Position numbers and translations under genes: made by a program. The notes beneath the pieces are model-generated. The model ran no database searches, was not told where the DNA came from, and saw nothing but the letters and a program-made list of their open reading frames with translations. Positions 9,762-64,000 of a DNA stretch of 64,000 nt are shown one piece after another. Origin of the DNA: Diplonema japonicum (lineage: Eukaryota; Protista; Euglenozoa: Diplonemea); the NCBI GenBank assembly GCA_964019335.1, contig OZ025714.1, positions 186,001 through 250,000 of the forward strand, written 5' to 3'. Position 1 is the first letter of the stretch; each line of letters opens with the position of its first letter.

Positions 9762-10789
9762 TCTTTCCCTTTTTTTTTTTTTTTTTCCTTTTCCTGTTTT
9801 GTGTTTTTTTTTTTTTTTTTTTTTTTTTTGGAAGTCAGAATAAAATTATAAAAAATAAAAAATAAAAAGAGAAAATCACACCGTTACTCCATGAATGAGT
9901 CGGGGAAGGGCATGTGGAAAAAAAAAAAAGAAGTACTAATAATAAAAATAAAGGGATAGGGGTGAGAAAGAGACAAGTGTGTGTGCTCAGTGAAGGTGGG
10001 AAGGGGGAAGGGGGGGGTTTTTTTTTTAAAAAAAAAAGTCCGTAACTTATTTGAATAAAAACGGGTTAAAGAAGGAACTGACCTGATTTTGGAAAAGAAT
10101 GATAGAGGCACCCCGTAGCTTCGCAGGGCCGCGCTCACAAGAGAAAAAAAAAAAAAAAAAAAAAAAAAAAAGATGAGGATGAAGAAAAATGAAAACTTGG
10201 AAACCAACAGAGCCGAGGGTAACTTTGGAAGGGAATTTTTCCTTAACTTTCATCCACTAACTTTAAGGTTACTTGTTTCCAATCAAGTTCAAATTTCGTT
10301 CTTTTCACTCATGTTTCATGGCCAAAAGACACCTACACTTGAACTCCGAACTTGACCTTGCATGTAGGTAACTTAAAGTTGTAGCACCCTGTTCTGTTAA
10401 TCCCCATTTTTTTTTTCTTTTTTTTTTTTTTTTTCGTTCAATTTTCTTTCCAACGCAAAAAAGAAGAAAAAAAAAGTGGAAAAAAAAAAAAAAAAAAAAA
10501 AATCATGAGGCACAAGGAGGTCGTTTTTGCCCTCTCCCTTCTCATATTTTTCTACCTGCATCATGTAGGCAAGGTACTGGGAAAAAAAAAAAAAAAAAAA
10601 GCAAACGGAAGGGCTTATAAAAGTGCCTGTTTCCAGAATTTTCTTCTTTTTTTTTTTGTTCTCTCTCTTTTTTTTTTTTTCTTTCTTTTTTTTTCTCTCC
10701 CCCCCCTTTGTATCTCCTAATCCAGCGACCGGCAGGAAAGGCCGCCTATAGTGCCGCATAAGACCACGTGAGCGTGTCAAGGGAGTGAC

Positions 10790-10875
10790 AGTGGTGAAGT
10801 AATTTCAGAATGTCGTGGAATAAAATCACTTAAAAGAATGATTTGTACCGGCCTCTGGTGCCGCATTTAATACAA
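10790..10875 (-). mobile_element. Degenerate fragment of the 44.1-44.9 kb hairpin element family
   Basis: Reverse complement AAATGCGGCACCAGAGGCCGGTAC...AAGTGATTTTATTCCACGACATTCTGAAATTACTTCACCAC matches about 44213-44298. Confidence 0.75.
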
Positions 10876-25316: not shown

Positions 25317-26460
25317 CTACCTTATGATGCTCCCCTTTTGGGGTCGTTCCCTGCTACCCACCGTAGTGCCTAGCTGTCGTTTATATCTTCCAATCCTTTC
25401 TTTCCGGTAATCTTCTCTCAGTCCTTTCAGCTTGGTCGCCGTCAGCCCCGATGCAAACAGGGCCCTCCTATCAAAGCCAACGACGTGGTCGCGGCCAATG
25501 GATCGTAGTGATCTCACGTTCTTGCATGACTGCGCCGGAAAAGCGCGTCTCCTCTTCTCCCTCATCCATGTCGCTTGCAGCGTATCCAGGATCCGCTTGA
25601 TCCTCACCGCCTTCTTGTCGATGTCAATCGTCGTGTTGATGTTAACCCCCAGCGTCTTCTTCGTGTAGCACTCGAAGTCAATCGCCAGCTCGATCGCCGA
25701 CACGGACGTTCCCTCCTCCGCCCACCGCAGCGCAGCCAGCCATCTCAGCACCTGATCACCATACTCCCTGAGCTGCGGGGTCAGCTTGAGCTTGTACAGT
25801 TCCACAACCTTTGGCGCCTCGAAACGCCTTCCTTGAGTCGTCACCATCCACGGCGGTTCCTTCTCAACCGCGAACCGCTTCATCGCCAGAGCACCTCTGC
25901 CAAATACCTCTGCAGCCTCTCCAAACCGCGAAACACGACCTTCCTCGGGAGAATCCCGTGCAGCTCCAAACAGACCGGCCACCTTTCGCTCCTGACCAGA
26001 CCGGTTTTTACCTCCTTCTTCTGCACCTCCAATGCGACCTCGCACTCCCAAAGCTGGTGTCGCAGCAACCTAACTGTGCTGCCCTTCGCAGCATCACAAA
26101 CATCGCAATTGAGCGTTCCCGCTGCTTTGTCCGTCCTCCCCCTACCCAGGTGGTCGGCTTCTTCCTCGCTCCCTTCACCTCCCTCTTCAGGAGGGGAGAG
26201 TAAAACTTGTTTCGCATACGGGCTGAGGTACGGCACCGCCCCGGCGATTATCCTCCTCACCCGCCACGCTTCGAGCGGTCTGCGTGCGCTGCACTTCATC
26301 CAGTAAGCGTTCGTTGCAGGGGCCGCGCCCTCCCAAGCCCGGCCATCGTGCTTCGCGCCTTCACAATACCCGATGTCCTCATCCTCCGCAGAGCCTCCCT
26401 GAGGTCGTGCCCAGGATTCTCTCCTCTGTGCCAGCTTGCCAGCCTTTCCCACTTCCATCC
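25317..26460 (-). mobile_element. 5'-truncated non-LTR retrotransposon remnant (zinc knuckle and C-terminal domain)
   Basis: CDVC..HQLWEC knuckle, WPVCLELHGI and ELAIDF motifs are shared with the RT-bearing remnant at 45.6-47.6 kb; one frameshift. Confidence 0.7.
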
Positions 26461-27951
26461 AAAAAAAAAAAAAAAAATTCATTTTATAGATCAAAACGAG
26501 ATTAAAATATATGAGTTAAAGGAGGCCGGTGTTGGCGGCGCCCTGCACAAGAACTATCTACTTGATTACAGGGGGCGCACCGCGGCCGAGTTGTAGCTTC
26601 TTCTGCGTTCCGCGTCGTGTCCTTAATGCGTGCGGTGTACAGCTCAACCCCAGCCGGTGCGTCCCGGGTAACCAAGATTCTGCGCTCGTGCAGTTTGCTG
26701 CCTGTTCGTCACCCTGAGCATCTGCAATATGTTCTTCCACTCGGGCGCTACCGGTGATGACTGACGAGGAGGTCAACAGCGAACAACACATCTGATGGTT
26801 TTCTTATATTTTCATGTTATCCCCACCACCTTTTAAAAAAATGTAAGCGAAAAGAGAGGGTGGAAAAAAAAAAGGGGGGGGGGGGGCAGCGTGTATTTTT
26901 AGCTTTTCGTGTAAACAAAAAGGTGCACCAACCAACAATTGATACTCCCTCTCAGAAAGGGCTTGTAATGTCCCGGGGGGGGGGGGGGGGGGGGTGCCCC
27001 ACTCCCTCTGGGCACTACCCATAAATAAAAGGCCATGTTTAAGGGTAAATCCCAGGCGAAGACATAAATTTCAAAAAAAAAAAAAATTGTTTGTGCAAGC
27101 CGTTTTCACCTACAGTAGGGATAAACGGACAAGCTGCCTCTACTCTTTTTTGCAATAACAATTCTTTTCAAAAATCTGTTTACTTGTTCCAGCAAAAAAA
27201 GAAAAAAAAAAAAAAAAAAAAAAAACCGTTGTTGTTGTTGGTATTCATTAGAAGATTATAATAAAAAACTCAGACAGCTGGCTAAAGTTCGCCTTATTTC
27301 TGTCGTTCTCGTTCTCCCCCCTGAAATGACTCGCATAAGAGGAGGTGCCGTCGTGCACCTTTACCCGACCAAAGGCCTTGCTACCAATAATAAAAGATGG
27401 GGGGGGGAGGAAGGGTATGGGGAGAGAATGAAAGGGGCCAAAAAAAGGGGGGGGGGAGTTTTCTTATTTTTTTATTTAAGGTCTTCTTTTTTTTCTTTTG
27501 GCATGTAAATGCCATGTGTACTATTTTTTCAGAAAAAAAGGAGGGGGGGGGGGGGGGGGGGGAATGAGCTCTCCTGACCGTTTTTATTGTAAAAAACCCT
27601 TTCCAATTATTGTCTATGCAATATGGTCAGTTATTCTAGAAGTTGTCCCTTTGGACTGACGTGTTGATGGCTCCTCCTGCGAATTTTAATCTAATTTTCG
27701 CAGTTTGCACCGTTCTTGGTAGATTCCATGGGTTCGAAAAAAAAAAGAAGAAAAAAAAAATCATCAAATAAATATGTCCGTGGCTCCCGTGCTGCGACCA
27801 AAACGCTTTCTCCGAACCGATGGTCTTTGGGGGGATTGATCTAAAAACTTTTTTTCAAGTGACACATGCATGAGTATTTTTTTTTTTTCTGAACGGGTTT
27901 GTAGAAGTGGAAAAAAAGAAGGTAGAAAACTGTAAAATCTTTGGACGGACT

Positions 27952-34460: not shown

Positions 34461-35294
34461 TAACTATTTATTTAGTGAATATAAGATCCTATGAATTCAC
34501 GCGTGGTGGCAGTGGTTTTGACGAGTGACGGTTATATCACGAGCGAAGTTATAACGTTTAACGAGTCAAAACTGCCACCACAAGTGAAATCATCAATCTT
34601 ATATTCACAAATACGATATTTTATTTAACGACAGCAAAATTTGAGTGGGTGGGAGGTACAGGTGGTACCAATTACAACAGGTGTCGGATATGTGCCTCGG
34701 TAGTGCACATGTTTAGCGTGGCGGATGCCATACCTCGGTGCTAAAGAATTCTGTTATTTGCTCTTGGGTAAAGATGTTCGCCTTTTTTGTTGACTCGCCT
34801 TCTTGGAACCTCTTGAGGGGGAGTGGTCTTGCAACTGCTTGTTGTAATTCCTCCTCACAACCGAGTTTAGCCTTGAATAAGCCGTCCGGACTGAACGGGC
34901 AGCAGGCCTTGCTTCATGTCGTTGAACTAGAGAATAGAATCCTCTTCTTTCGGACGGGCCCTTCTTTTCCTTCCTATAATTATGAAACACACAAAAGCGT
35001 GCCTACTCCTTTTCGTATGGCTCTTGGAAGGGGGTGAACCCTGTTGCGTCCGCCTCTTGTGCAGTCGGGCTCTTGCCTATCCCAAAGGAACCTTGGTAGG
35101 AATTCTTGGAGGGTTCTGCTTAAATTAGGCCCAGGAGTGAAATAATATTTCTTATTTTAACGCTATCAGAATTTTTTCACTCCTGGGCCTAATTTCTTTT
35201 AGAAGCCGGAGCGTGAAAATAAAGTCAAGAGTGAAATAAAGTGAATTTTTATTTTCACTCCCACCCACGAAAATTTTGATGGAGTTAAATAAAA
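34461..35294 (+). mobile_element. Non-coding A-A'-B-B' inverted-repeat element (Crypton-like?), family 1
   Basis: Hairpin 34475-34608; inverted repeat 34619-34653 with 35260-35294; perfect 21-bp internal IR at 35122-35195; flanked by A-runs. Confidence 0.7.
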
Positions 35295-43610: not shown

Positions 43611-44123
43611 TGGGACATAAAATGCAAAAAAAAAAAAAAAAAAAAAATGGTGTAAAAATCATTTTGACTTTGATGCAGCCAAAAGAATGGGTAGGTGAAG
43701 AGAGTAAAAAAAAAAAAAAAAAAGGTGTAAATCAGGAAGGGAGGTAAAAAAAAAAAAAAAGAAAAAAAATTGGGGCGTTGTGCCCTTCTTTTTTTTTGTT
43801 ATCCTTTTTTACTTGCTTTCTTATTAATTTTTTTTTCTTCATTTTCCCTCCTCCAGGGACCGGAGGGGCAAGAAAAAAAAAAGAAGAAAAAAAAAAAAAA
43901 AAACATCCTTGCCAAGCTATTATTCCCCGTGGTATATATATTTTTTTCTTTTTTCTTTTTTTTTTTTTTGCTACAATACACCGAAAAAAGAAGAAGAAGA
44001 AAAGAATATCACATAAATATCACACACCCGTACTTTTTTTTTTTTTTTTAATTTAATTACTAAGGTTTCAGGGGGGTAACTATCTTATCAATTGGAAAAA
44101 AAAAAAAAAAAAAAAAAAAAAAA

Positions 44124-44862
44124 TAGCTATTTACTGCCAACAAGTAATGACTTTACCGTTACCTCGAGGTTCCGCATTTTACCGTCGAGGGCCCGCAGGG
44201 CCCGAGATGGTAAAATGCGGAACCGAGAGGTCGGTAAAGCATTACTTGGCGGTAGGTAAGTGGTTTTATTTCACGACACTCTGAAATTACTTCACCACGA
44301 GGGGCACAACAGGGTGACAAGGGGTACAACAAGAGAGGGGTTACAAAGGTTACAATACAAGTTGTTTTTCCTCCTTTTGTTGACTAAGAGCTGCCGCTGT
44401 CGCTGGCATTGCCACTGTCACCATCTCTAATCAGGCCTTCTCATACCTGGCGCGGCCGCTGGCTCCTTTTTTTCTGCTGCTTCGGTATTTTGAAGTCTTT
44501 TGGGGAGCTTGGGTAAGCTGACTAAGTTACCCTTACCCACAGAAGAGTTACCCCCAAAAACTGGGAACAAGGCCTAGCAAAAGTGGGCAAATTGGGAGGA
44601 AAAAGTAGTCCAACTTGGAAGCCGAGGCAAAAGTTGGCCAATTGAGCTGAACCTGGGGGGAAATTAGCAAACTGAGAGGAAAAAGTAGCCCCACTGGGAA
44701 CCGAACCGAGGCAAAAATTGGCCTACCGAGGCATATTATTTAACGGAAACCCCCTATTACTTCACGGAAAACAGGCCATTATTTCACCGTGAAGTAATGA
44801 GATTTAGCGTGAAGTAATGGGCCCCCCAGTGCGTGAAGTAATTTCTGAAGAGTGAAATAAAA
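44124..44862 (+). mobile_element. Non-coding A-A'-B-B' inverted-repeat element (Crypton-like?), family 2
   Basis: Hairpin about 44128-44258 with GGGCCC-GCA-GGGCCC apex; IR 44264-44295 with 44833-44862; repeated GTGAAGTAAT near the right end; flanked by A-runs. Confidence 0.75.
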
Positions 44863-45134
44863 AAAAAAAAAAAGAGAGAGAAAAAAAAAGAAAACTACGG
44901 GTGGGAGGCTTTTCTTCTTTTTTTCTACTTAGGATTTTCACTCAAAAATAAAACATAAAAATGAGAAGAACGGTCTAAATTCATAGGAGAGAGAATCAAG
45001 GGGAAGTGGGGTGGTGATTATAAAAAATAAAAAAAATAAAAAGAAACGAACAGAACTGAGGCAAGCGAAAAGAACAAAATAAAATCCTTTCTATTTTTTT
45101 TTTTTTTTTAAATTTTTTATTTTTTATTTTTATT

Positions 45135-45576: not shown

Positions 45577-47580
45577 CTATCTCTTGATCGAACCATTCTG
45601 CTGTGGTGTGGCCTTCGGCCCCTCGTTCACCCTCCTCGGTACCTTAGGTATAAAACCCTCAACCGAGTTGGTAAGGACACAATAGTTGTACAGTTGTTTC
45701 TCAAGGATGTGGCGGGTCACCGGGGAGGCGAATACCGGTCTAGAGGAGTAGCCCCTTACGGAGCTGTTGTAGTAACCCAACGTGCGTAGGGAGTGGACAG
45801 AAACTACTGAAGCAGCTGGGATGAGGGGCGCTATGCCCTTACTGGTGTGGATGCGTTCTAGTGCCGTTATCACCCGGCCTATTACACGCGCGCTCACTTG
45901 GATGTCCTCACCCTCTTCACAAGGCGAGAGTCCCACCGTGGCAATGAAGTCTATGGCCAGCTCAAGCCTGGAGACCTGTCCACCATCGGATGACGTGCGG
46001 GATGAGCCGTGGGAGGTACTGTTGCCTCAAACCATTGTCGCAGTACCACCTCAGTGGCCGTGGCTTAAGCAAACTCCCCTTCTCGAAAGGCCTGTTCCAC
46101 AGGTGAACGCTGAAGTTCATCGTCTTTTTCCGTGCGAAGGTGAGTTGTAAGCTACCAGTAATCTCCGCCATCATCAGCTGCAACTCGGCAGTGTCCAGCC
46201 CGAGTCCCACTGTCGCGATGCCGTGCAGTTGCGTGCACCGGGGCCACTGGTTGTGCACAGCGCCGCCCGCGTCTCGGAAGCTGTCCTGATGTGCTCGTGC
46301 GCCTGACAGTCCCAGAGGGTGTGCTCCAGGAGTCGCAGCCCATGCATTTCGTCCGCCCCCCGACCGTGTCGTTGATGATCTTGGGGTGGAACGGGAAAAC
46401 AGCCCCAGTTATCACCTGCAGTACCCTTCGTGCTTTGGGAGGGTTGCGGGTCGCCAGGTGCAGGTGTAGCCCGTTGGTTGCCACTTCGTCGATGTCGCCC
46501 GTCCCTTGAAAGGAGGGTCTGCTCTCCTCGAGGTCCGCTCGCAGGTGGACCTTCAGGAGCTTCCTGACCTCATGCTTCAGTGCCCCAGGCTCTAGGGGGA
46601 CCCATTGCCGCGCGAATTGCGCCCAGCTGGACCCTAGTTCCTCCAGCAGCTCGTGGGTCTGTCCGAGTATCCCGCGCGGGGCGAGGGGGTTTCCTTCGGG
46701 CGGCCTCCTTGTAGCCGTCTCTGCACGCCCTGACGAGTGAACTGGACTCATCGTCGCTCCTCATCATCCGCGCAAACGTTGTGATCCTGCGGTATGCGGC
46801 TGCTGAGTACGGGTCCAGCCTGTGTCCTTTGAAAGCCACCCCGAGAAGGGCGCCTGACGAGCGTGTTGGGTTGTGTGGGCCCCATATGCAAGAGGTAATC
46901 TTCTTCCTGAGGGAGTCCAAGAGCGAGTCCGTGGGTGGCGTGTAGAGCACTCCGTAGAGCGCCGCTGGTAGGATGCAGTCTTCTATCAGTTGGGCCTTAC
47001 GCGTTCTCGTGATTTGGGTCACTGTGAGCCTGTCGACAGCATCTAGCGCCGTGGCGATCCTTGTGTTCTTCGTCCTGGTGGGCTGCAGGCACACCGTACA
47101 CCCCAGCATAGTTACGCTTTTCACCGTATCGAATAAGGTGCCCCTCATCGCCAGCTTGCTTCTGTACCCCTTCTTGGTGCTAAAGGGCTTTGTTTTCCCC
47201 GGGTGTACCGACATGTTTGTCAGGCGGCAGAGCTCGTCCAGCAAGAGTATGGAACTCTGGACCGCCTTCTCCGAGATCCTAGAGAAGAGGTATAGGCCGT
47301 CCGCGTAGGAGATGGGTAGGACTTCTGGGGATGTGGTGACGCATCGCCTGGTGTAGGCAGCGAGGATGGCGTTGATGAAGACGGGTGAGATAGGGCACAT
47401 GCCCAGTCTCTCCGCAAGGTCGAACGTTAACGTGACAGGGACGGAGTCGAAACACTTCCTGAAGTCTACCGACAGGCCATACAAGGGTTCTGCCCCCTGT
47501 CGAGCATTTTCCACCTGCGCACACACTTTGAAGAGTAGGTCATCGACGCCGTGTTTTGGCCTAAAGCCGTGCTGCGTCGG
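45577..47580 (-). mobile_element. Degenerate, 5'-truncated non-LTR retrotransposon with reverse transcriptase
   Basis: QHGFRP, LSVDFRKCFDSVP, SYADG (mutated YADD) and TMLGC motifs; the QG motif region is deleted; CMGC..HTLWDC knuckle; frameshifts. Confidence 0.88.
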
Positions 47581-47670
47581 GGAAAAAAGAAAAAGAAGAA
47601 AAAAAAATACTCAGAGAAACAGAATACTGTACAAACAATAATAATAATAACAAAAAAAAAAAAGAAATGC

Positions 47671-51853: not shown

Positions 51854-52512
51854 TGTCTTGATGGTTGGTTCTTCTTCGCAACCCCTGCCCCCTTTTGTTG
51901 TTGTGAAAATCGTGCTTACAAAAGTTTTTTTTTTGAATAAAAAACGTGGGGAGGGGGGGGGAGAAGGAATATTTCTTTTTTCTTAAGCATTTGAGGACTT
52001 TTCAAGTGGAAGAAATTTGGAACCAGCCCTCTGTACAATGCGGGCGCTCCAAAAAAAAATCTGGCTTTTTTTCCCACCTCCGAAGAAAATAATTAAAAAA
52101 AAGAAAAAAAAGTGAGGGAGAAAAGAAAATAATTAAAAAAAAAAAGGGTTTGTACATTACTGTATTTTGTATTTAACATGGAACGGGGGGAAAAGAAAAA
52201 AGAAAATGGAACTTTCCCCCGTATATTAGATCCAAATACGGTATAAGAAAGGGGGGGAAAAGGGGAGGACGGGACGGTAAATACGCGATGTTTTTTTTTT
52301 TTTTTTTTTTTTTTTTTCTTTCAAAAGGAATATTCTACCTTTTTTTTTTTCTTTTTTTTTTTTTTTCCTATTCTTTTTTTTTTCTCTTGAGGACCCAAAT
52401 AAAGGGCGCCTTCTTTTTCTTTTTTTTTAGCTCATTTTTTTTTAATTACGGGAAAAACCTGGAAAGGCCCCCTCATTTACAGAATCTTTTTTTTTTTTTT
52501 TTTTTTTCTTTT

Positions 52513-53722
52513 GAGAAAACTGCTAACTTGACCCCTAAGTTTGAAAAGCCACCCCCTTAGTTTGAGAAATGTTCAAGGTCTATCTTTAAAGAGGAAAAAG
52601 TTTCTGATCCAGTCCCCAAGGTTTCCTAAATCTCTGTGTAGTACCCCAAATCTTCAAAAAAACTCATACTCGACCCCTAGGTTTTAAAATGCTTGAATTC
52701 GGTCCCCTTAGTTTCATAAATGCTCAAAGTAGACCCCCTTGGTTTTCAAAATGTTCAGTTTCGGAAATACACAACCTGGGCCCCCTAGGTTTCCAGAATG
52801 CCCAACCTGGGCCCCCTATGTTTCCAGAATGCCCAACCTGGGCCCCCTATGTCTCCAGAATGCCCAACCTGGGCCCCCTATGTTTCCAGAATGCCCAACC
52901 TGGGCCCCCTATGTTTCATAAATGCTCAACAACATTTTTTCACCCCAACATTTCCTAGCTCTTTTTCCCATCATTATATCACAAAAACCAATCCATTTTA
53001 AAATGCCTACAACCCAGTCAAAGATTGTTGCTGATGCGGTGTTCTCAGACATGGCTGAAGAGAGGCCTTCTCGGACTGCTACAAGAGCGGTCGGGTGTTT
53101 AGCACTGTGAAAACCACCAGCGAAAAGGTGGTACTTGCCTGCTGCACTGAAGACTGCCAATGGAGGGTGGTGTTCCGGAATAAAGAAGGGGGGACATATG
53201 TAACATGCCTCCCCATACCTGCACCCTATCCAACCATGAAAGAAGGCACCAGTTGGCATTGCTGATTGGGTTAAGGATGCTTCGGGACAAGGTGGAGAAA
53301 TCCTCCGGTTAAGGGCCGACCCAGGCGATGACTGACATACTGGTCTTCAGGGAGGCAGGCATTGGACTTTCCTCTGCTAGGAGGGCTAGGGAGACTCTTT
53401 TCGGATCAGTGCAATGCGCACAACCTTGTTGAGCGCTAATAATGAAACTTAGGGGACCCATTCGGGTTATTTGTGAAACTAAGGGGGAGTTTTTTGAGTA
53501 TGAAAACTAAGGGGTTGACTTTGAGCGATTTCCCGCCGTAGGGGCCTAGTTAGGGCATTTGAAAACCTGAGGGGGCGGACTTTGAACACTACACGACTTT
53601 GGAAACTTAGGGGGCGGGATTTGAGCGTTTTGAAGACTTAGGGGGTGGACTTTGAGCATTTTGGAAACTTAGGGGTCGGAATTTAAGCATTTCGAAAACT
53701 TAGGGGTCATGTTAGGACTCTA

Positions 53723-53725
<3 letters not shown>
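52513..53725 (+). mobile_element. Non-autonomous Mutator-like (MULE) element with repeat-rich long TIRs
   Basis: Ends GAGAAAACTGCTAACTTGACCCCTAAGTTT / AAACTTAGGGGTCATGTTAGGACTCTACCC within T-runs. Internal MuDR DNA-binding remnant C.TEDCQWRV...HTC and SARRARETLFGS at about 53100-53410. Confidence 0.8.
52772..52927 (+). repeat. 31-bp tandem repeat, about 5 copies
   Basis: Unit CAACCTGGGCCCCCTATGTTTCCAGAATGCC. Confidence 0.93.
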
Positions 53726-59065: not shown

Positions 59066-59532
59066 CAACGCCAACCGGGTCCTGTAAACCAAGAAAAATA
59101 TTTCACGCGAAAAAAAATAGTGATTCGCAAAAAGAAGTGAATAATTCTTGTGGTGAGTTAATTCTTAACTTCTTCTGAGAAATTGTTTTCCCGGTGATAC
59201 GATTTCTTTGTTAGCACACAATCATTCCCCGCCCCCTCTCAAAAACAGATGAGTTAGCACAAAAAGCTCAAGAAGAGCCCGCATAAGATTCGTATCTTTT
59301 CTTTTTTTTTTTGTCTTGCTATAGGAGGTTGGGGGGAACAGAAAAGTACTTTTGCTTGAAATGAAAGGTAGAACTGCAGAGAACGATAAAAAGTGATCAG
59401 ACTGCTAGAAGCACATCTTCACCATCAATTTTTTTTGCACTTCAGGATTATTCAAACAAGGGGGAGGGTGTCATGTTGCAAAATCACACTGTGGAAGGAA
59501 AAAAGATTCATTTCTTGGAACGTAACTTCAGC

Positions 59533-60963
59533 TTACTGCGGGATCTTGCAGAACTCATCGAATTTGCAGTCGCCCGCCATGGGGTAGGCGGTGAAGAGGT
59601 CGTCGGGGCTGCAGAACTGCACGTTCGTCTTGTCCGCCCCACACTTCGGCCACCTGATGCGCCTCTCGTTGTGGAGGAGCTCCGTCTTCCAGCTCGTCAC
59701 GCCCTCAGCATTCTCACACCTGTGCAGAACCATGTCCACGTTCGCCGCCATCGGGGAGATCACACCAGTGCGCCACTTCCTTGCCATCGCCTGTTCCCAA
59801 GGCATGTCCGCAGTGAGGGGGACAGGGTCCACGTACAGCCCAAGCTGGGCGAGGAGGGGCTGGATCGTGTCGCTGTGCCCGAACATGAAGGCCGCCTGCA
59901 CCTCGTTGTCGTCCTCAGAGTACTTCTTCAGACCATTCAAGAGTTTCGACATCAGAGGGCAAGCGAGCTCCTGTGCGATCTGGGTACCGTGGCCACCCTC
60001 GTAGTACTCCCCAAGGTCCTTCAGGAAGGCGAACATCTCGTAGTCCTTCTCCTCGAACACAGCACAGGGGCTGTGGCGGCGGGGGGTGTCGAGCACCACA
60101 GTCTCGAACATGCACGCCTTGTAAAGAAGCTCCAACCCGTCGAAGTCAAGCTTCCACACAGAGGTGTCGAGCTGGAGCTTCGCCGTCACACGGGCACCAA
60201 CCTCCTCCTCGAGCTTCTTCTCGAAGATGTCCTCCTGCACCTTCCCAGGGAAGTTGTCGTCGTCGGTGATCGCATCGTAGTTGGGGCAGTTGTCCGAAAA
60301 CCTGATGATCTTGTCACCATCGTAGTCCTCTAACCCGTTCCACAGGCAGAACATCGCAACAGGCTCGTTGTTGTCCCTCCCGAGTTGGCCCCTCCCCTCC
60401 TGGAAGGAGGACAAGGCGAAGGCGCTGGCTGACCTAGAGGTCCTGGTCTTCCAAGTGTGCTGGAAGGTGTGGTAGATGGGGTTGTAGTCCTCAGAGAGGA
60501 TGTCCCTACCGTATTTGCGCCTGTACCTTGCCCCCATCTTGTAGAGCTCCTCCTTCCCCACCTCGTTCAGGTGCTTCTCAACGTTGGTCGGGAAGGGGTT
60601 CGTCCAGGACTTCAGGAAGGCGTACCTGGGGTTCTTGATGGCACTCCCCTTGCTCGCGAGGAGCTCCTCCAAGTCCTTCACGTCGTCGTTGTCGTCGTAC
60701 CTCGACCCGTGCCTCCCGACGTGCTGTAGGTGCACAGCCTCACACCTCTCGTCACCCTCCCCCACGGGACCCTCGTGCTCGTGGTTGGACAGGGACTTCG
60801 AGCTCCAGTAAGGGGTCTTCGTTGTGAAGTCGTACTTAGTCGGCCTCCTGGAAGGAGGGTTCCTGTTCCTGTCCCACCAGTGCCACCCGTGGTGGCCCCA
60901 GTGGGAGGTGAAGGTCCCCTCAGCAGCGGCCAGAAGGCCCAACAGAAGCACGGCTTTCATCAT
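59533..60963 (-). CDS. MINPP1: Secreted histidine acid phosphatase, MINPP/phytase-like, copy 1
   Basis: Signal peptide; TKTPY, RHGSR and FGHSDT motifs; intronless. Confidence 0.88.
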   Translation of the reverse strand: MMKAVLLLGLLAAAEGTFTSHWGHHGWHWWDRNRNPPSRRPTKYDFTTKTPYWSSKSLSNHEHEGPVGEGDERCEAVHLQHVGRHGSRYDDNDDVKDLEELLASKGSAIKNPRYAFLKSWTNPFPTNVEKHLNEVGKEELYKMGARYRRKYGRDILSEDYNPIYHTFQHTWKTRTSRSASAFALSSFQEGRGQLGRDNNEPVAMFCLWNGLEDYDGDKIIRFSDNCPNYDAITDDDNFPGKVQEDIFEKKLEEEVGARVTAKLQLDTSVWKLDFDGLELLYKACMFETVVLDTPRRHSPCAVFEEKDYEMFAFLKDLGEYYEGGHGTQIAQELACPLMSKLLNGLKKYSEDDNEVQAAFMFGHSDTIQPLLAQLGLYVDPVPLTADMPWEQAMARKWRTGVISPMAANVDMVLHRCENAEGVTSWKTELLHNERRIRWPKCGADKTNVQFCSPDDLFTAYPMAGDCKFDEFCKIPQ

Positions 60964-61903
60964 TTTAGTTTTCGTTGAATCTGATTTGCTGTTGTCAATA
61001 AAGCAAAGTGAGGGGGGGCTAAGAAAAAGCGTAAAAAAAAAACAAAAAGAAGATTACAAGACCAACAGGAATTACTTTCTGTGATCCCTCACCTTCTATT
61101 TTGCTGTCATTCATTTTCTTTCTCTTTACTTTAGTAACCATGCATTTCAAAGAGGTGGTATTCAAACGCAACCATTCTGTCATCCATGTTGTCAATATTT
61201 CGATCAGCAAAGTCGCTTCACAGCAACACTGCGACTGACAACAGGGGGGAGGGAGGGGGTACTCTTTTTTGTTTTGTTAAATTTTGTAGTTTTTCTTTGT
61301 CGTTGCTTTGTGTTTTCTTTTTCCTTTTTGTTGTCCCATTCATACAGACGCACTTCAATCCTGTTTTTTTTTTCTCCAATTTCTTATGTAGGACAAAAAA
61401 GAGGAGTGTTTTAGGAATGAAATGAAAAAGGGAACGAAAAAAGGTAAGTTGTGAGTATCTTCTTCTTTCTTTTGTTTTTCATTTTTTTTTTTTGTAGTTT
61501 AGATGTAGTTTGGTCAGGGTTTGAGTAACCTTCTCGCAGAATCTTCTTGCATCGTGTCGTTTGGCTTAATTTATTCCTTTCACACGGAGCAGGTTTGAAA
61601 GAAATGCAAGAATAAAAAATGGTTCAAAAAATTCATATTGAGCAGAGAGGAGGGAGGCAGAGCCTCTATAGTGAGACGAGGGTCAACACCAAATCACATA
61701 TGAACCGAACGAGTATGGGGGCAAGTGCCTCCATAGCTAGAAAGGAACAAAGAGGGATGGCGGACACAGTACTTTTTTTCTTTTTTAAATCTCACACGAG
61801 AGTTTCGACTCAGATTTCGCAAGTGAAAAGAAAAGGAAACTAAAAAAACGGCCACCAAAACAAAGGCCGGAACAGAATTGAGTTGTAGTACCATCAACTT
61901 CGC

Positions 61904-63346
61904 TTACTGCGGGATCTTGCAGAACTCATCGAATTTGCAGTCGCCCGCCATGGGGTAGGCGGTGAAGAGGTCGTCGGGGCTGCAGAACTGCACGTTCGTC
62001 TTGTCCGCCCCACACTTCGGCCACCTGATGCGCCTCTCGTTGTGGAGGAGCTCCGTCTTCCAGCTCGTCACGCCCTCAGCATTCTCACACCTGTGCAGAA
62101 CCATGTCCACGTTCGCCGCCATCGGGGAGATCACACCAGTGCGCCACTTCCTTGCCATCGCCTGCTCCCAAGGCATGTCCGCAGTGAGGGGGACAGGGTC
62201 CACGTACAGCCCAAGCTGGGAAAGGAGGGGCTGGATCGTGTCGCTGTGCCCGAACATGAAGGCCGCCTGCACCTCGTTGTCGTCCTCAGAGTACTTCTTC
62301 AGACCGTTCAAGAGCTTCGACATCAGAGGGCACGCAAGATCTTGTGCGATCTGGGTACCGTGGCCACCCTCGTAGTACTCCCCAAGGTCCTTCAGGAAGG
62401 CGAACATCTCGTAGTCCTTCTCCTCGAACACAGCACAGGGGCTGTGGCGGCGGGGGGTGTCGAGCACCACAGTCTCGAACATGCACGCCTTGTAAAGAAG
62501 CTCCAACCCGTCGAAGTCAAGCTTCCACACAGAGGTGTCGAGCTGGAGCTTCGCCGTCACACGGGCACCAACCTCCTCCTCGAGCTTCTTCTCGAAGATG
62601 TCCTCCTGCACCTTCCCAGGGAAGTTGTCGTCGTCGGTGATCGCATCGTAGTTGGGGCAGTTGTCCGAAAACCTGATGATCTTGTCACCATCGTAGTCCT
62701 CTAACCCGTTCCACAGGCAGAACATCGCAACAGGCTCGTTGTTGTCCCTCCCGAGTTGGCCCCTCCCCTCCTGGAAGGAGGACAAGGCGAAGGCGCTGGC
62801 TGACCTAGAGGTCCTGGTCTTCCAAGTGTGCTGGAAGGTGTGGTAGATGGGGTTGTAGTCCTCAGAGAGGATGTCCCTACCGTATTTGCGCCTGTACCTT
62901 GCCCCCATCTTGTAGAGCTCCTCCTTCCCCACCTCGTTCAGGTGCTTCTCAACGTTGGTCGGGAAGGGGTTCGTCCAGGACTTCAGGAAGGCGTACCTGG
63001 GGTTCTTGATGGCACTCCCCTTGCTCGCGAGGAGCTCCTCCAAGTCCTTCACGTCGTCGTTGTCGTCGTACCTCGACCCGTGCCTCCCGACGTGCTGTAG
63101 GTGCACAGCCTCACACCTCTCGTCACCCTCCCCCACGGGACCCTCGTGCTCGTGGTTGGACAGGGACTTCGAGCTCCAGTAAGGGGTTTTCGTTGTGAAG
63201 TCGTACTTAGTCGGCCTCCTGGAAGGAGGGTTCCTGTTCCTGTTCCACCAGTTCCATCCGTGGTGGTGGCCCCAGTGGTCCCAGTGGGAGGTGAAGGTGC
63301 CCTCAGCAGCGGCCAGAAGGCCCAACACAAGCACGGCTTTCATCAT
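61904..63346 (-). CDS. MINPP1: Secreted histidine acid phosphatase, MINPP/phytase-like, copy 2
   Basis: Near-identical tandem paralog of 59533-60963. Confidence 0.88.
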   Translation of the reverse strand: MMKAVLVLGLLAAAEGTFTSHWDHWGHHHGWNWWNRNRNPPSRRPTKYDFTTKTPYWSSKSLSNHEHEGPVGEGDERCEAVHLQHVGRHGSRYDDNDDVKDLEELLASKGSAIKNPRYAFLKSWTNPFPTNVEKHLNEVGKEELYKMGARYRRKYGRDILSEDYNPIYHTFQHTWKTRTSRSASAFALSSFQEGRGQLGRDNNEPVAMFCLWNGLEDYDGDKIIRFSDNCPNYDAITDDDNFPGKVQEDIFEKKLEEEVGARVTAKLQLDTSVWKLDFDGLELLYKACMFETVVLDTPRRHSPCAVFEEKDYEMFAFLKDLGEYYEGGHGTQIAQDLACPLMSKLLNGLKKYSEDDNEVQAAFMFGHSDTIQPLLSQLGLYVDPVPLTADMPWEQAMARKWRTGVISPMAANVDMVLHRCENAEGVTSWKTELLHNERRIRWPKCGADKTNVQFCSPDDLFTAYPMAGDCKFDEFCKIPQ

Positions 63347-64000
63347 TTTCGTTTTTGGTTAAACTGTTATGTAAGTTAGTCATAATTAGAATTTAAATAA
63401 TCTAAAATTGCTCAGGTCGTGTTTCAAAAACCGAAGGTGATCTGTTAACCTAGATTCTATGAGAGATAAAGAAGAAGAAGAGAAGACAGAAGAATAGAAC
63501 ATGCTAAAAGATTTCTGTAGTTTTGTGCCTGGCATGGGGACCGTTACAAAATTAGAAAGCATATTGAGCATCGGGAATTGGAAACATAACCTTCTTTGTT
63601 TCAATCAACTTAGTCAATAGAAGCAGGCATGTCAGTTCCCTTTCACCGTTCGTTCAGACTAGAAATGCGTTAATAAATTGTCTATTCGCCATTGTAAGCA
63701 AAACTACCTAGAGGCAGACTGCGATGGCAGAAATTCTTTTTTTCTTTTTCGTTAACCTTTATGCTACCAATTACCCCCCCTGGTAACATAAGGGTAAAAC
63801 TAGAAGAAAAAAAAAAGAGTCAAAAGAGGATTATCATTTCGCCCTTACTCCTTGAAGAAGTTGAGGAAAAGAAATCAAAAGCAGGAAAAAAAAATGGGTC
63901 TAGAATTTTAGAAAAACATCATAGGGTCCCACTTTGAACGAGTTACGTGGCAGACGCCCCTGCAGCGAGCTAAGGGCCTCCGCAGCAGATCAAATGGTGA

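Follow-up and report, generated by a model that had tools for sequence, protein, structure and literature searches.

A hairpin-ended repeat of Diplonema japonicum as a candidate Crypton-type transposon recombining on one folded strand

The attP site of the CTX phage recombines as a folded strand, and the element described here is likened to this system. For the attC sites of integrons, one-strand exchange and its replicative resolution have been shown (PMC3458562), and the available text of a second description reports that G·T pairs are more numerous on the attC bottom strands, whose tip is often GAA (PMC5027507). Among DNA mini-hairpins, GCGNAGC is described as unusually stable, while the related RNA hairpin is far weaker (partial text of PMC13037366). 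For Cryptons, the description without inverted repeats (Kojima and Jurka 2011) rests on few families (PMC3212892, available part). Their transposition has never been demonstrated experimentally, and a double-stranded circle is assumed, according to the accessible sections of a 2026 review (PMC13565253). Crypton families share terminal similarity, with no fold described in the available part of the source (PMC5753468), and the words ‘hairpin’ and ‘single-strand’ are absent from the main text of the 2026 Glomhopper paper (PMC13465315). The genome paper of the diplonemid D. papillatum names TATE, MULE and Helitron, and ‘Crypton’ is absent from its text supplements in the parts available (PMC10161547). 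In the full-text literature, a scope outside which Repbase Reports and most subscription journals fall, we found neither hairpin-ended Cryptons nor diplonemid Cryptons.

Here we analysed a window of 64,000 nucleotides of Diplonema japonicum (contig OZ025714.1 of assembly GCA_964019335.1, forward-strand positions 186,001 to 250,000; positions below are counted from the first letter of the window). Positions 44124-44862 (+ strand) form element A, a non-autonomous, gene-less repeat of 739 bp, delimited by contig joints and by flanking A-runs of 28 and 15 nt. A long hairpin, recognised by folding and arm alignment, makes up its left end (44128-44258, + strand), and an internal mirror of the joined ends, recognised by folding and end register, extends over 44248-44295 (+). 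Just inside the hairpin lies the core of the left, subterminal inverted repeat (44264-44274, +), with GA after it at 44275-76; the partner repeat, at the opposite end of A, consists of GA and the right terminal inverted repeat core (44850-44862, +), which runs into the 15-nt A-run. This inverted repeat, identified by pairing, is 11 bp long. The interior contains degenerate tandem repeats (44572-44730; six copies of about 25 nt and an 80-nt duplication), revealed by a self-comparison, that is, a repeat and pairing search of the element, as well as subterminal repeats (44753-44848), with ATTACTTCAC occurring once and GTGAAGTAAT three times, which possibly pair mutually or with 44280-95. No recognisable ORF was found in A.

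Element A was matched by 10,086, 3,260, 6 and 14 contigs in four public runs. Many contig joints drop its interior yet retain both ends, and one contig carries a different left flank. The element is abundant, and no copy number is claimed from summed contig depth; for the depth of family A, 44060-44135 and 44847-44930 were masked. The initial annotation of this DNA treated the feature as a family of folded stems; we recognise the hairpin as the end of an abundant mobile element, a point not stated there. Exact family patterns had no match in viral contigs or metagenome contigs. Element A is also present in runs coded as other organisms, in which the protist or a related species may occur at a low level; in run X4 there is one near-identical contig, at depth 25. 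At 44266, contigs of runs X1 and X3 pass directly from the inverted repeat of A into a TAACTATTTA-type left end of a third hairpin family, read as its reverse complement, and this junction represents either a tandem insertion or the mirror of another family.

The hairpin had been described from the letters as a stem pairing ACCTC-GA-GGTT with AACC-GA-GAGGT below a GCA-capped apex, and our alignment of the arms (44128-44194 against 44198-44258) bears this out. It comprises 53 Watson-Crick pairs, four G·T and four G·A, with bulges of 3, 1 and 2 nt and zero A·C, C·T or T·T oppositions. Specifically, the G·A oppositions form two tandem 5'-GA/GA (44166-67/44225-26 and 44187-88/44204-05), both being CGAG opposite CGAG, and the apex is a GCA triloop (44195-44197) with a C-G closing pair. 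The basal stem (44128-38/44248-58) contains three G·T and otherwise no mismatch, in agreement with the G-T-only mismatching claimed for it. The long-range GA/GA that had also been proposed is present at 44275-76/44850-51, with a Watson-Crick closing pair on one side only; beyond it follow a C·A opposition, a bulge and a T·T.

We compared the two strands by folding, all DNA energies quoted being from the 2004 parameter set. As the initial annotation had anticipated, the + strand of the hairpin is favoured, with -51.1 kcal/mol (z -14.4; 0 of 200 shuffles equal or better) versus -45.9 kcal/mol (z -11.1) for the - strand. The hairpin is a real, non-random feature. All eight of its mismatches, namely the four G·T wobbles and the two tandem GA/GA, favour the + strand. 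When the eight mismatched positions and the loop were randomised, the observed strand difference of 5.2 kcal/mol was reached or exceeded in 59 of 2000 versions (0.0295), so the energy bias towards the + strand is real but modest. Folding of the whole element A gave -148.7 for the + strand versus -135.1 for the - strand.

A second family is represented by element B (34461-35294, + strand), which has the left end and the terminal repeats of A and an unrelated hairpin. The left end common to both is TARCTATTTA, the terminal repeats differ by one C-G to A-T pair change, and the hairpin of B gave no alignment to that of A. In both elements the end pairing extends over 30 bp, and B lies between A-runs of 12 and 19 nt. 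It was matched by 1,029, 388, 358 and 149 contigs in four runs of one study. GA/GA is found in B both in the hairpin (34523-24/34563-64) and in the end-to-end stem (34630-31/35282-83 and 34643-44/35269-70). The hairpin of the window copy is decayed, holding C·A, C·T and G·G mismatches, and has no strand bias (-36.5 versus -36.3), while the whole element favours the + strand (-148.4 versus -144.7); the attC-like one-strand folding bias is thus seen in the hairpin of A and, for B, in the whole element. Other B copies carry a GA-GC-GAA-GC-GA tip, visible in runs X2 and X7 (one sample) as loose ends ahead of 34548, and B contigs of X1 and X2 have a 4-nt insertion after 34546 that matches this tip, which the window copy has partly lost.

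Additionally, B contains a separate hairpin with a 25-bp stem (35122-35195), and within 35210-35294 its right terminal repeat occurs a second time, near 35229-35240. Since one X3 contig ends there in a non-A flank, shorter members of family B may use this inner end. Element C (10789-10868, - strand) is a decayed fragment comprising the right hairpin arm, spacer and left inverted repeat of A at 77% identity.

Within B lies a broken ORF (34716-35080, - strand), which is split into pieces across three frames; the D. japonicum protein P0005, encoded by a family transcript, matches the ORF at 96%. Two of its stops are removed by the majority letters of other copies (35004 T>C in 99% of X1 depth and 34927 C>A in 69%). 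Before the ESM-Atlas test, we presumed that the pieces resemble CryptonI-type N-terminal regions. In ESM-Atlas, 24 of 30 matches of P0005 fell in clusters of PF02899 (Phage_int_SAM_1, integrase SAM-like N-terminal domains) at 0.95, with recognition 2422; these family matches shared 137-143 features, below the 170 typical of same-family matches, and the top match was an unnamed eukaryotic cluster. The next ORF piece pointed to a DUF3504 (CryptonA-type) cluster at 0.82 and to Phage_int_SAM_4, both below 0.9 and leads only.

Other searches with P0005 returned little. A Pfam profile search yielded nothing below E 0.18, searches of PHROGs, NCBIfam and PDB sequences gave no match, and a HMMER search of 1.84 billion proteins retrieved only P0005 itself and one unrelated repeat match, with no full-length recombinase or catalytic domain. 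Word searches produced no full-length recombinase relative, and no related viral locus was found, tblastn in phages and plasmids giving chance-level matches only (E 6 or more). The single-sequence model of P0005 is poor (pLDDT 58, pTM 0.25), and fold searches with it are uninformative and weigh neither way. In the window, 57 of the 97 frames of at least 130 aa were scanned, none of which matched recombinase or Helitron families, the remaining 40 being mostly antisense or overlapping. Judged from sequence, a recombinase link of the family is likely. For A this link is indirect, running solely through the ends shared with B, because A has no recognisable ORF and its ends are common to B. The analogy with integrons and CTX drawn in the initial annotation has thereby gained a lead, a B remnant resembling the N-terminal domain of a tyrosine recombinase; no enzyme was found intact.

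This ORF remnant lowered a reading that we had first favoured and now regard as unlikely, namely that A and B belong to the non-autonomous rolling-circle elements of the Helitron2/Helentron type (HLE2, HINE-like), with a folded strand that serves RepHel and with a recombinase-like fragment captured by B. Its strength lies in the layout, since A also has most Helitron2 features, including short asymmetric inverted repeats, a 5' T and a T-rich target, and this counts against our preferred reading. Read on the - strand, A starts with T and the 11-bp repeat, and 44779-87 may form a 5' hairpin with 44852-60; it also carries the partner repeat directly before the hairpin, an ATTTT end and T-run flanks, as do Helitron2 elements and HINEs in the available text of their descriptions (PMC3627910, PMC4067079, PMC5148889, PMC11417382). 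The likeness to Helitron2/Helentron elements (DINE-1, HINE, FoHeli) thus covers asymmetric inverted repeats, a hairpin adjoining one repeat, T-rich sites, the ATTTT end and single-strand transposition, whereas those elements, as far as the accessible descriptions go, have much shorter hairpins and repeats, are driven by RepHel and would not be expected to carry a recombinase remnant (PMC3627910, PMC4067079, PMC5148889). Specifically, HLE2 hairpins are given there as palindromes of 5-10 bp, and their 3' repeat is placed 20-60 bp inside the end. The present stem measures about 60 bp, its repeat is about 140-160 bp away from the end, and the ends pair over 30 bp, unlike the short HLE2 repeats. 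Helitron-like ORFs are present in D. papillatum (PMC10161547, available part), and gene pieces do get captured by Helitrons; against this, the sole coding remnant resembles a recombinase domain, and the window frames scanned gave no Helitron match.

We next consider the GA/GA pairs. Across the main stems of A and B, five of the eight two-base internal loops, a count that includes one 3x2 loop, are GA/GA on the + strand; none is GA/GA on the - strand and none is TC/TC. If chance gave GA/GA at 1-5%, five of eight would have a binomial P of 5e-9 to 2e-5, for a pattern that was preselected and in elements that share ancestry. Outside the three family copies, stems with 2x2 mismatches held GA/GA in 0/19, 1/28 and 0/136 under three stem settings, and TC/TC in none; inside the copies, the same crude scan gave 1/2, 0/1 and 2/13, many of these being chance stems.

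Conservation of the GA/GA positions among genomic copies had been proposed as a check on the initial annotation. In the contigs of the public runs, the GA positions of the A hairpin are indeed more than 96% invariant within family A, and they are conserved no better than other stem positions. Three of the eight hairpin GA positions show other letters at 2.8-3.3% in run X1 and below 1% in X3, compared with five variable ones among the other A-hairpin positions listed for X1. The variants at GA positions always change toward the Watson-Crick partner, and A takes the first loop position in 6.4% (run X1). Because GA positions vary like other stem positions, conservation inside the young family A neither supports nor refutes selection on GA/GA; family B is the better test. 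In 2.8% of X1 depth (nine contigs, 47-48 letters from their ends), TC replaces the GA at 44204-44205 and complements the other arm exactly. This double change suggests either that one arm of the folded hairpin was corrected by the other in vivo or that the template was switched while the library was prepared.

The broader proposal of a + strand made for folding, opposite in sense to the genes, is supported by the mismatch types of A and by the GA/GA pairs and GAA tip kept in B, while a role as single-stranded DNA stands as a prediction. As RNA, the + strand of A likewise folds far better than the - strand (-92.4 versus -77.7), and tandem GA is stable in RNA as well, as would suit an antisense transcript or small-RNA precursor. 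Such a role in RNA, or a selectively neutral palindrome with chance mismatches, is nevertheless highly improbable. The neighbouring genes and the ORF of B have their coding sense on the - strand, unrelated stems repeatedly hold GA/GA at rates far exceeding the background, and an Rfam search gave 35 weak matches, none of them at threshold. Moreover, the GAA/GCA triloop is a DNA-favoured motif in the available text of PMC13037366, and a tip of the GCGNAGC type, DNA-stable and RNA-weak, points to DNA rather than RNA.

The internal mirror is predicted to bring the two ends of A together. Its segment 44248-58 pairs with the left end, 44259-63 forms an unpaired spacer, and 44264-74, continuing to 44295, pairs with the right end. 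When one flank A is retained, A and B have their ends in the same register on the mirror, with 11 pairs, a 5x5 bubble and then resumed pairing; the bubble contains one Watson-Crick pair and one G·T in A and neither in B. With no flank A kept, B has as many pairs (16) as with one. Circular folding pairs the junction, and the + strand is favoured in A and B at every flank length tried. Integron attC sites, in the accessible text of two descriptions (PMC5027507, PMC3458562), resemble the present elements in that one strand is favoured through G·T pairs and unpaired bases rich in purines, and they too have bulged bases, a tip of GAA type and a central spacer with mismatches. They differ in being bacterial and in forming one local hairpin, whereas the site of A would form only when both ends pair with the mirror; tandem GA/GA is a feature of A and B that was not encountered in the available text of those attC descriptions.

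We therefore propose, at a probability of about 0.55, that A is a non-autonomous Crypton-type tyrosine-recombinase transposon, likely recombining as one folded + strand with the enzyme supplied in trans. The stems, the mismatch types, the end design of A and B, the many related contigs, the A-run flanks and the broken, transcribed ORF of B are demonstrated. Mechanistically, the + strand would become single-stranded, likely at the replication fork, and is predicted to fold into the hairpin and the end-to-end stem. Both ends would then be held side by side on the internal mirror, as an 11-bp arm, the mismatched 5x5 bubble and a second arm, an arrangement that we liken to a folded attC site with its unpaired central spacer. 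A recombinase acting in trans would exchange only the strand bearing the ends, and the product would be a closed single-stranded circle that is released, or a strand joined to A-rich target DNA. A second exchange would be prevented by the bubble, leaving the junction to be completed or resolved by replication. The GA/GA pairs and the GNA tip would favour one strand and may also be protein contact points. One-strand exchange into an A-rich target fits the A-runs on both sides and the high copy number.

Comparison with published Cryptons (CryptonA/CryptonI) and their derivatives supports this assignment in part. In the available text of PMC3212892, they are alike in having short derivatives that keep both ends, and the tyrosine-recombinase N-terminal-like remnant is a further likeness. 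Of a tyrosine recombinase with the R-H-R-Y residues, as an autonomous Crypton partner would encode, the searches above recovered no more than this remnant in B. Unlike the elements here, they lack terminal inverted repeats and have 4-6 bp direct repeats in fungi and stramenopiles and none in animals. Against the Crypton reading, the published absence of terminal inverted repeats fails for A and B, which have 11-bp asymmetric inverted repeats; as to direct repeats of 4-6 bp, the ends of both run into A-tracts. Cryptons are reported in that source from fungi, stramenopiles and animals, while the present elements have a euglenozoan host, a long hairpin, asymmetric inverted repeats and an internal mirror.

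The same Crypton-type derivatives might instead be moved by a recombinase on a double-stranded circle, with the hairpin being an origin for circle copying or similar, or a by-product. This is the published model in the available text of two sources (PMC13565253, PMC3212892), and it fits the joined ends, which have two-fold symmetric A/T-rich arms; GNA mini-hairpins are moreover found at ssDNA priming sites (PMC13037366, available part). We consider it quite unlikely, in that it leaves unexplained the mirror with a fixed 5-nt bubble in two families and the GA/GA in the end-to-end stem.

The mirror also recalls DIRS-like elements with ITRs and ICR and VIPER/TATE, which, in the accessible part of PMC6681497, combine a tyrosine recombinase with an internal stretch complementary to both ends. 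A and B could then be miniature DIRS-like retroelements, the mirror being the internal complementary region and the + strand a first-strand cDNA that circularises for the tyrosine recombinase. In this sense it fits that the folding strand is antisense to the ORF of B and that B is transcribed, and recombinase retroelements of the TATE/VIPER type occur in euglenozoans according to the available literature text. Those elements, unlike A and B, need a reverse transcriptase and long terminal repeats. Neither A nor B showed a remnant of RT or gag, their repeats are short and asymmetric rather than long inverted or split direct ones, and the recombinase-like piece begins about 210 bp from the B end, where a lone ORF would start. 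We judge this origin improbable.

Elsewhere in the window, the intergenic DNA is full of A- and T-runs, and the long ORFs with a Pfam match are on the - strand. A reverse-transcriptase fragment (PF00078, E 5.6e-10) occupies 46573-47610 (- strand), and a second retroelement-like remnant without a Pfam match lies near 25320-26515. At 52450-53723, an element whose long inverted arms consist of tandem repeats of about 31 nt, and which contains a short, broken ORF (52912-53346, - strand), again with no Pfam match, is presumably Mutator/foldback-like. Histidine-phosphatase genes stand in tandem duplicate at 59524-63366 and are 97.7% identical. Their protein is 98% identical to EukProt proteins of D. 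japonicum, in accord with a host that is this diplonemid or a near relative.

The proposed recombination of A as a folded + strand would make its ends a defined substrate: they predict the strand, the position of the bubble and the bases to mutate, and are therefore testable with synthetic DNA. Elements like A can be misfiled as Helitron2 derivatives from layout alone. More generally, and tentatively, at somewhat short of even odds, Crypton-type transposons across eukaryotic supergroups, here in a euglenozoan, may move by integron-like single-strand recombination, with their ends folded onto an internal mirror and with GA/GA and the GNA tip serving as a conserved, sequence-independent strand code. 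If this is true, a eukaryotic recombinase working on folded single strands would parallel the bacterial integrons, and the diplonemid case would place this design far outside animals.
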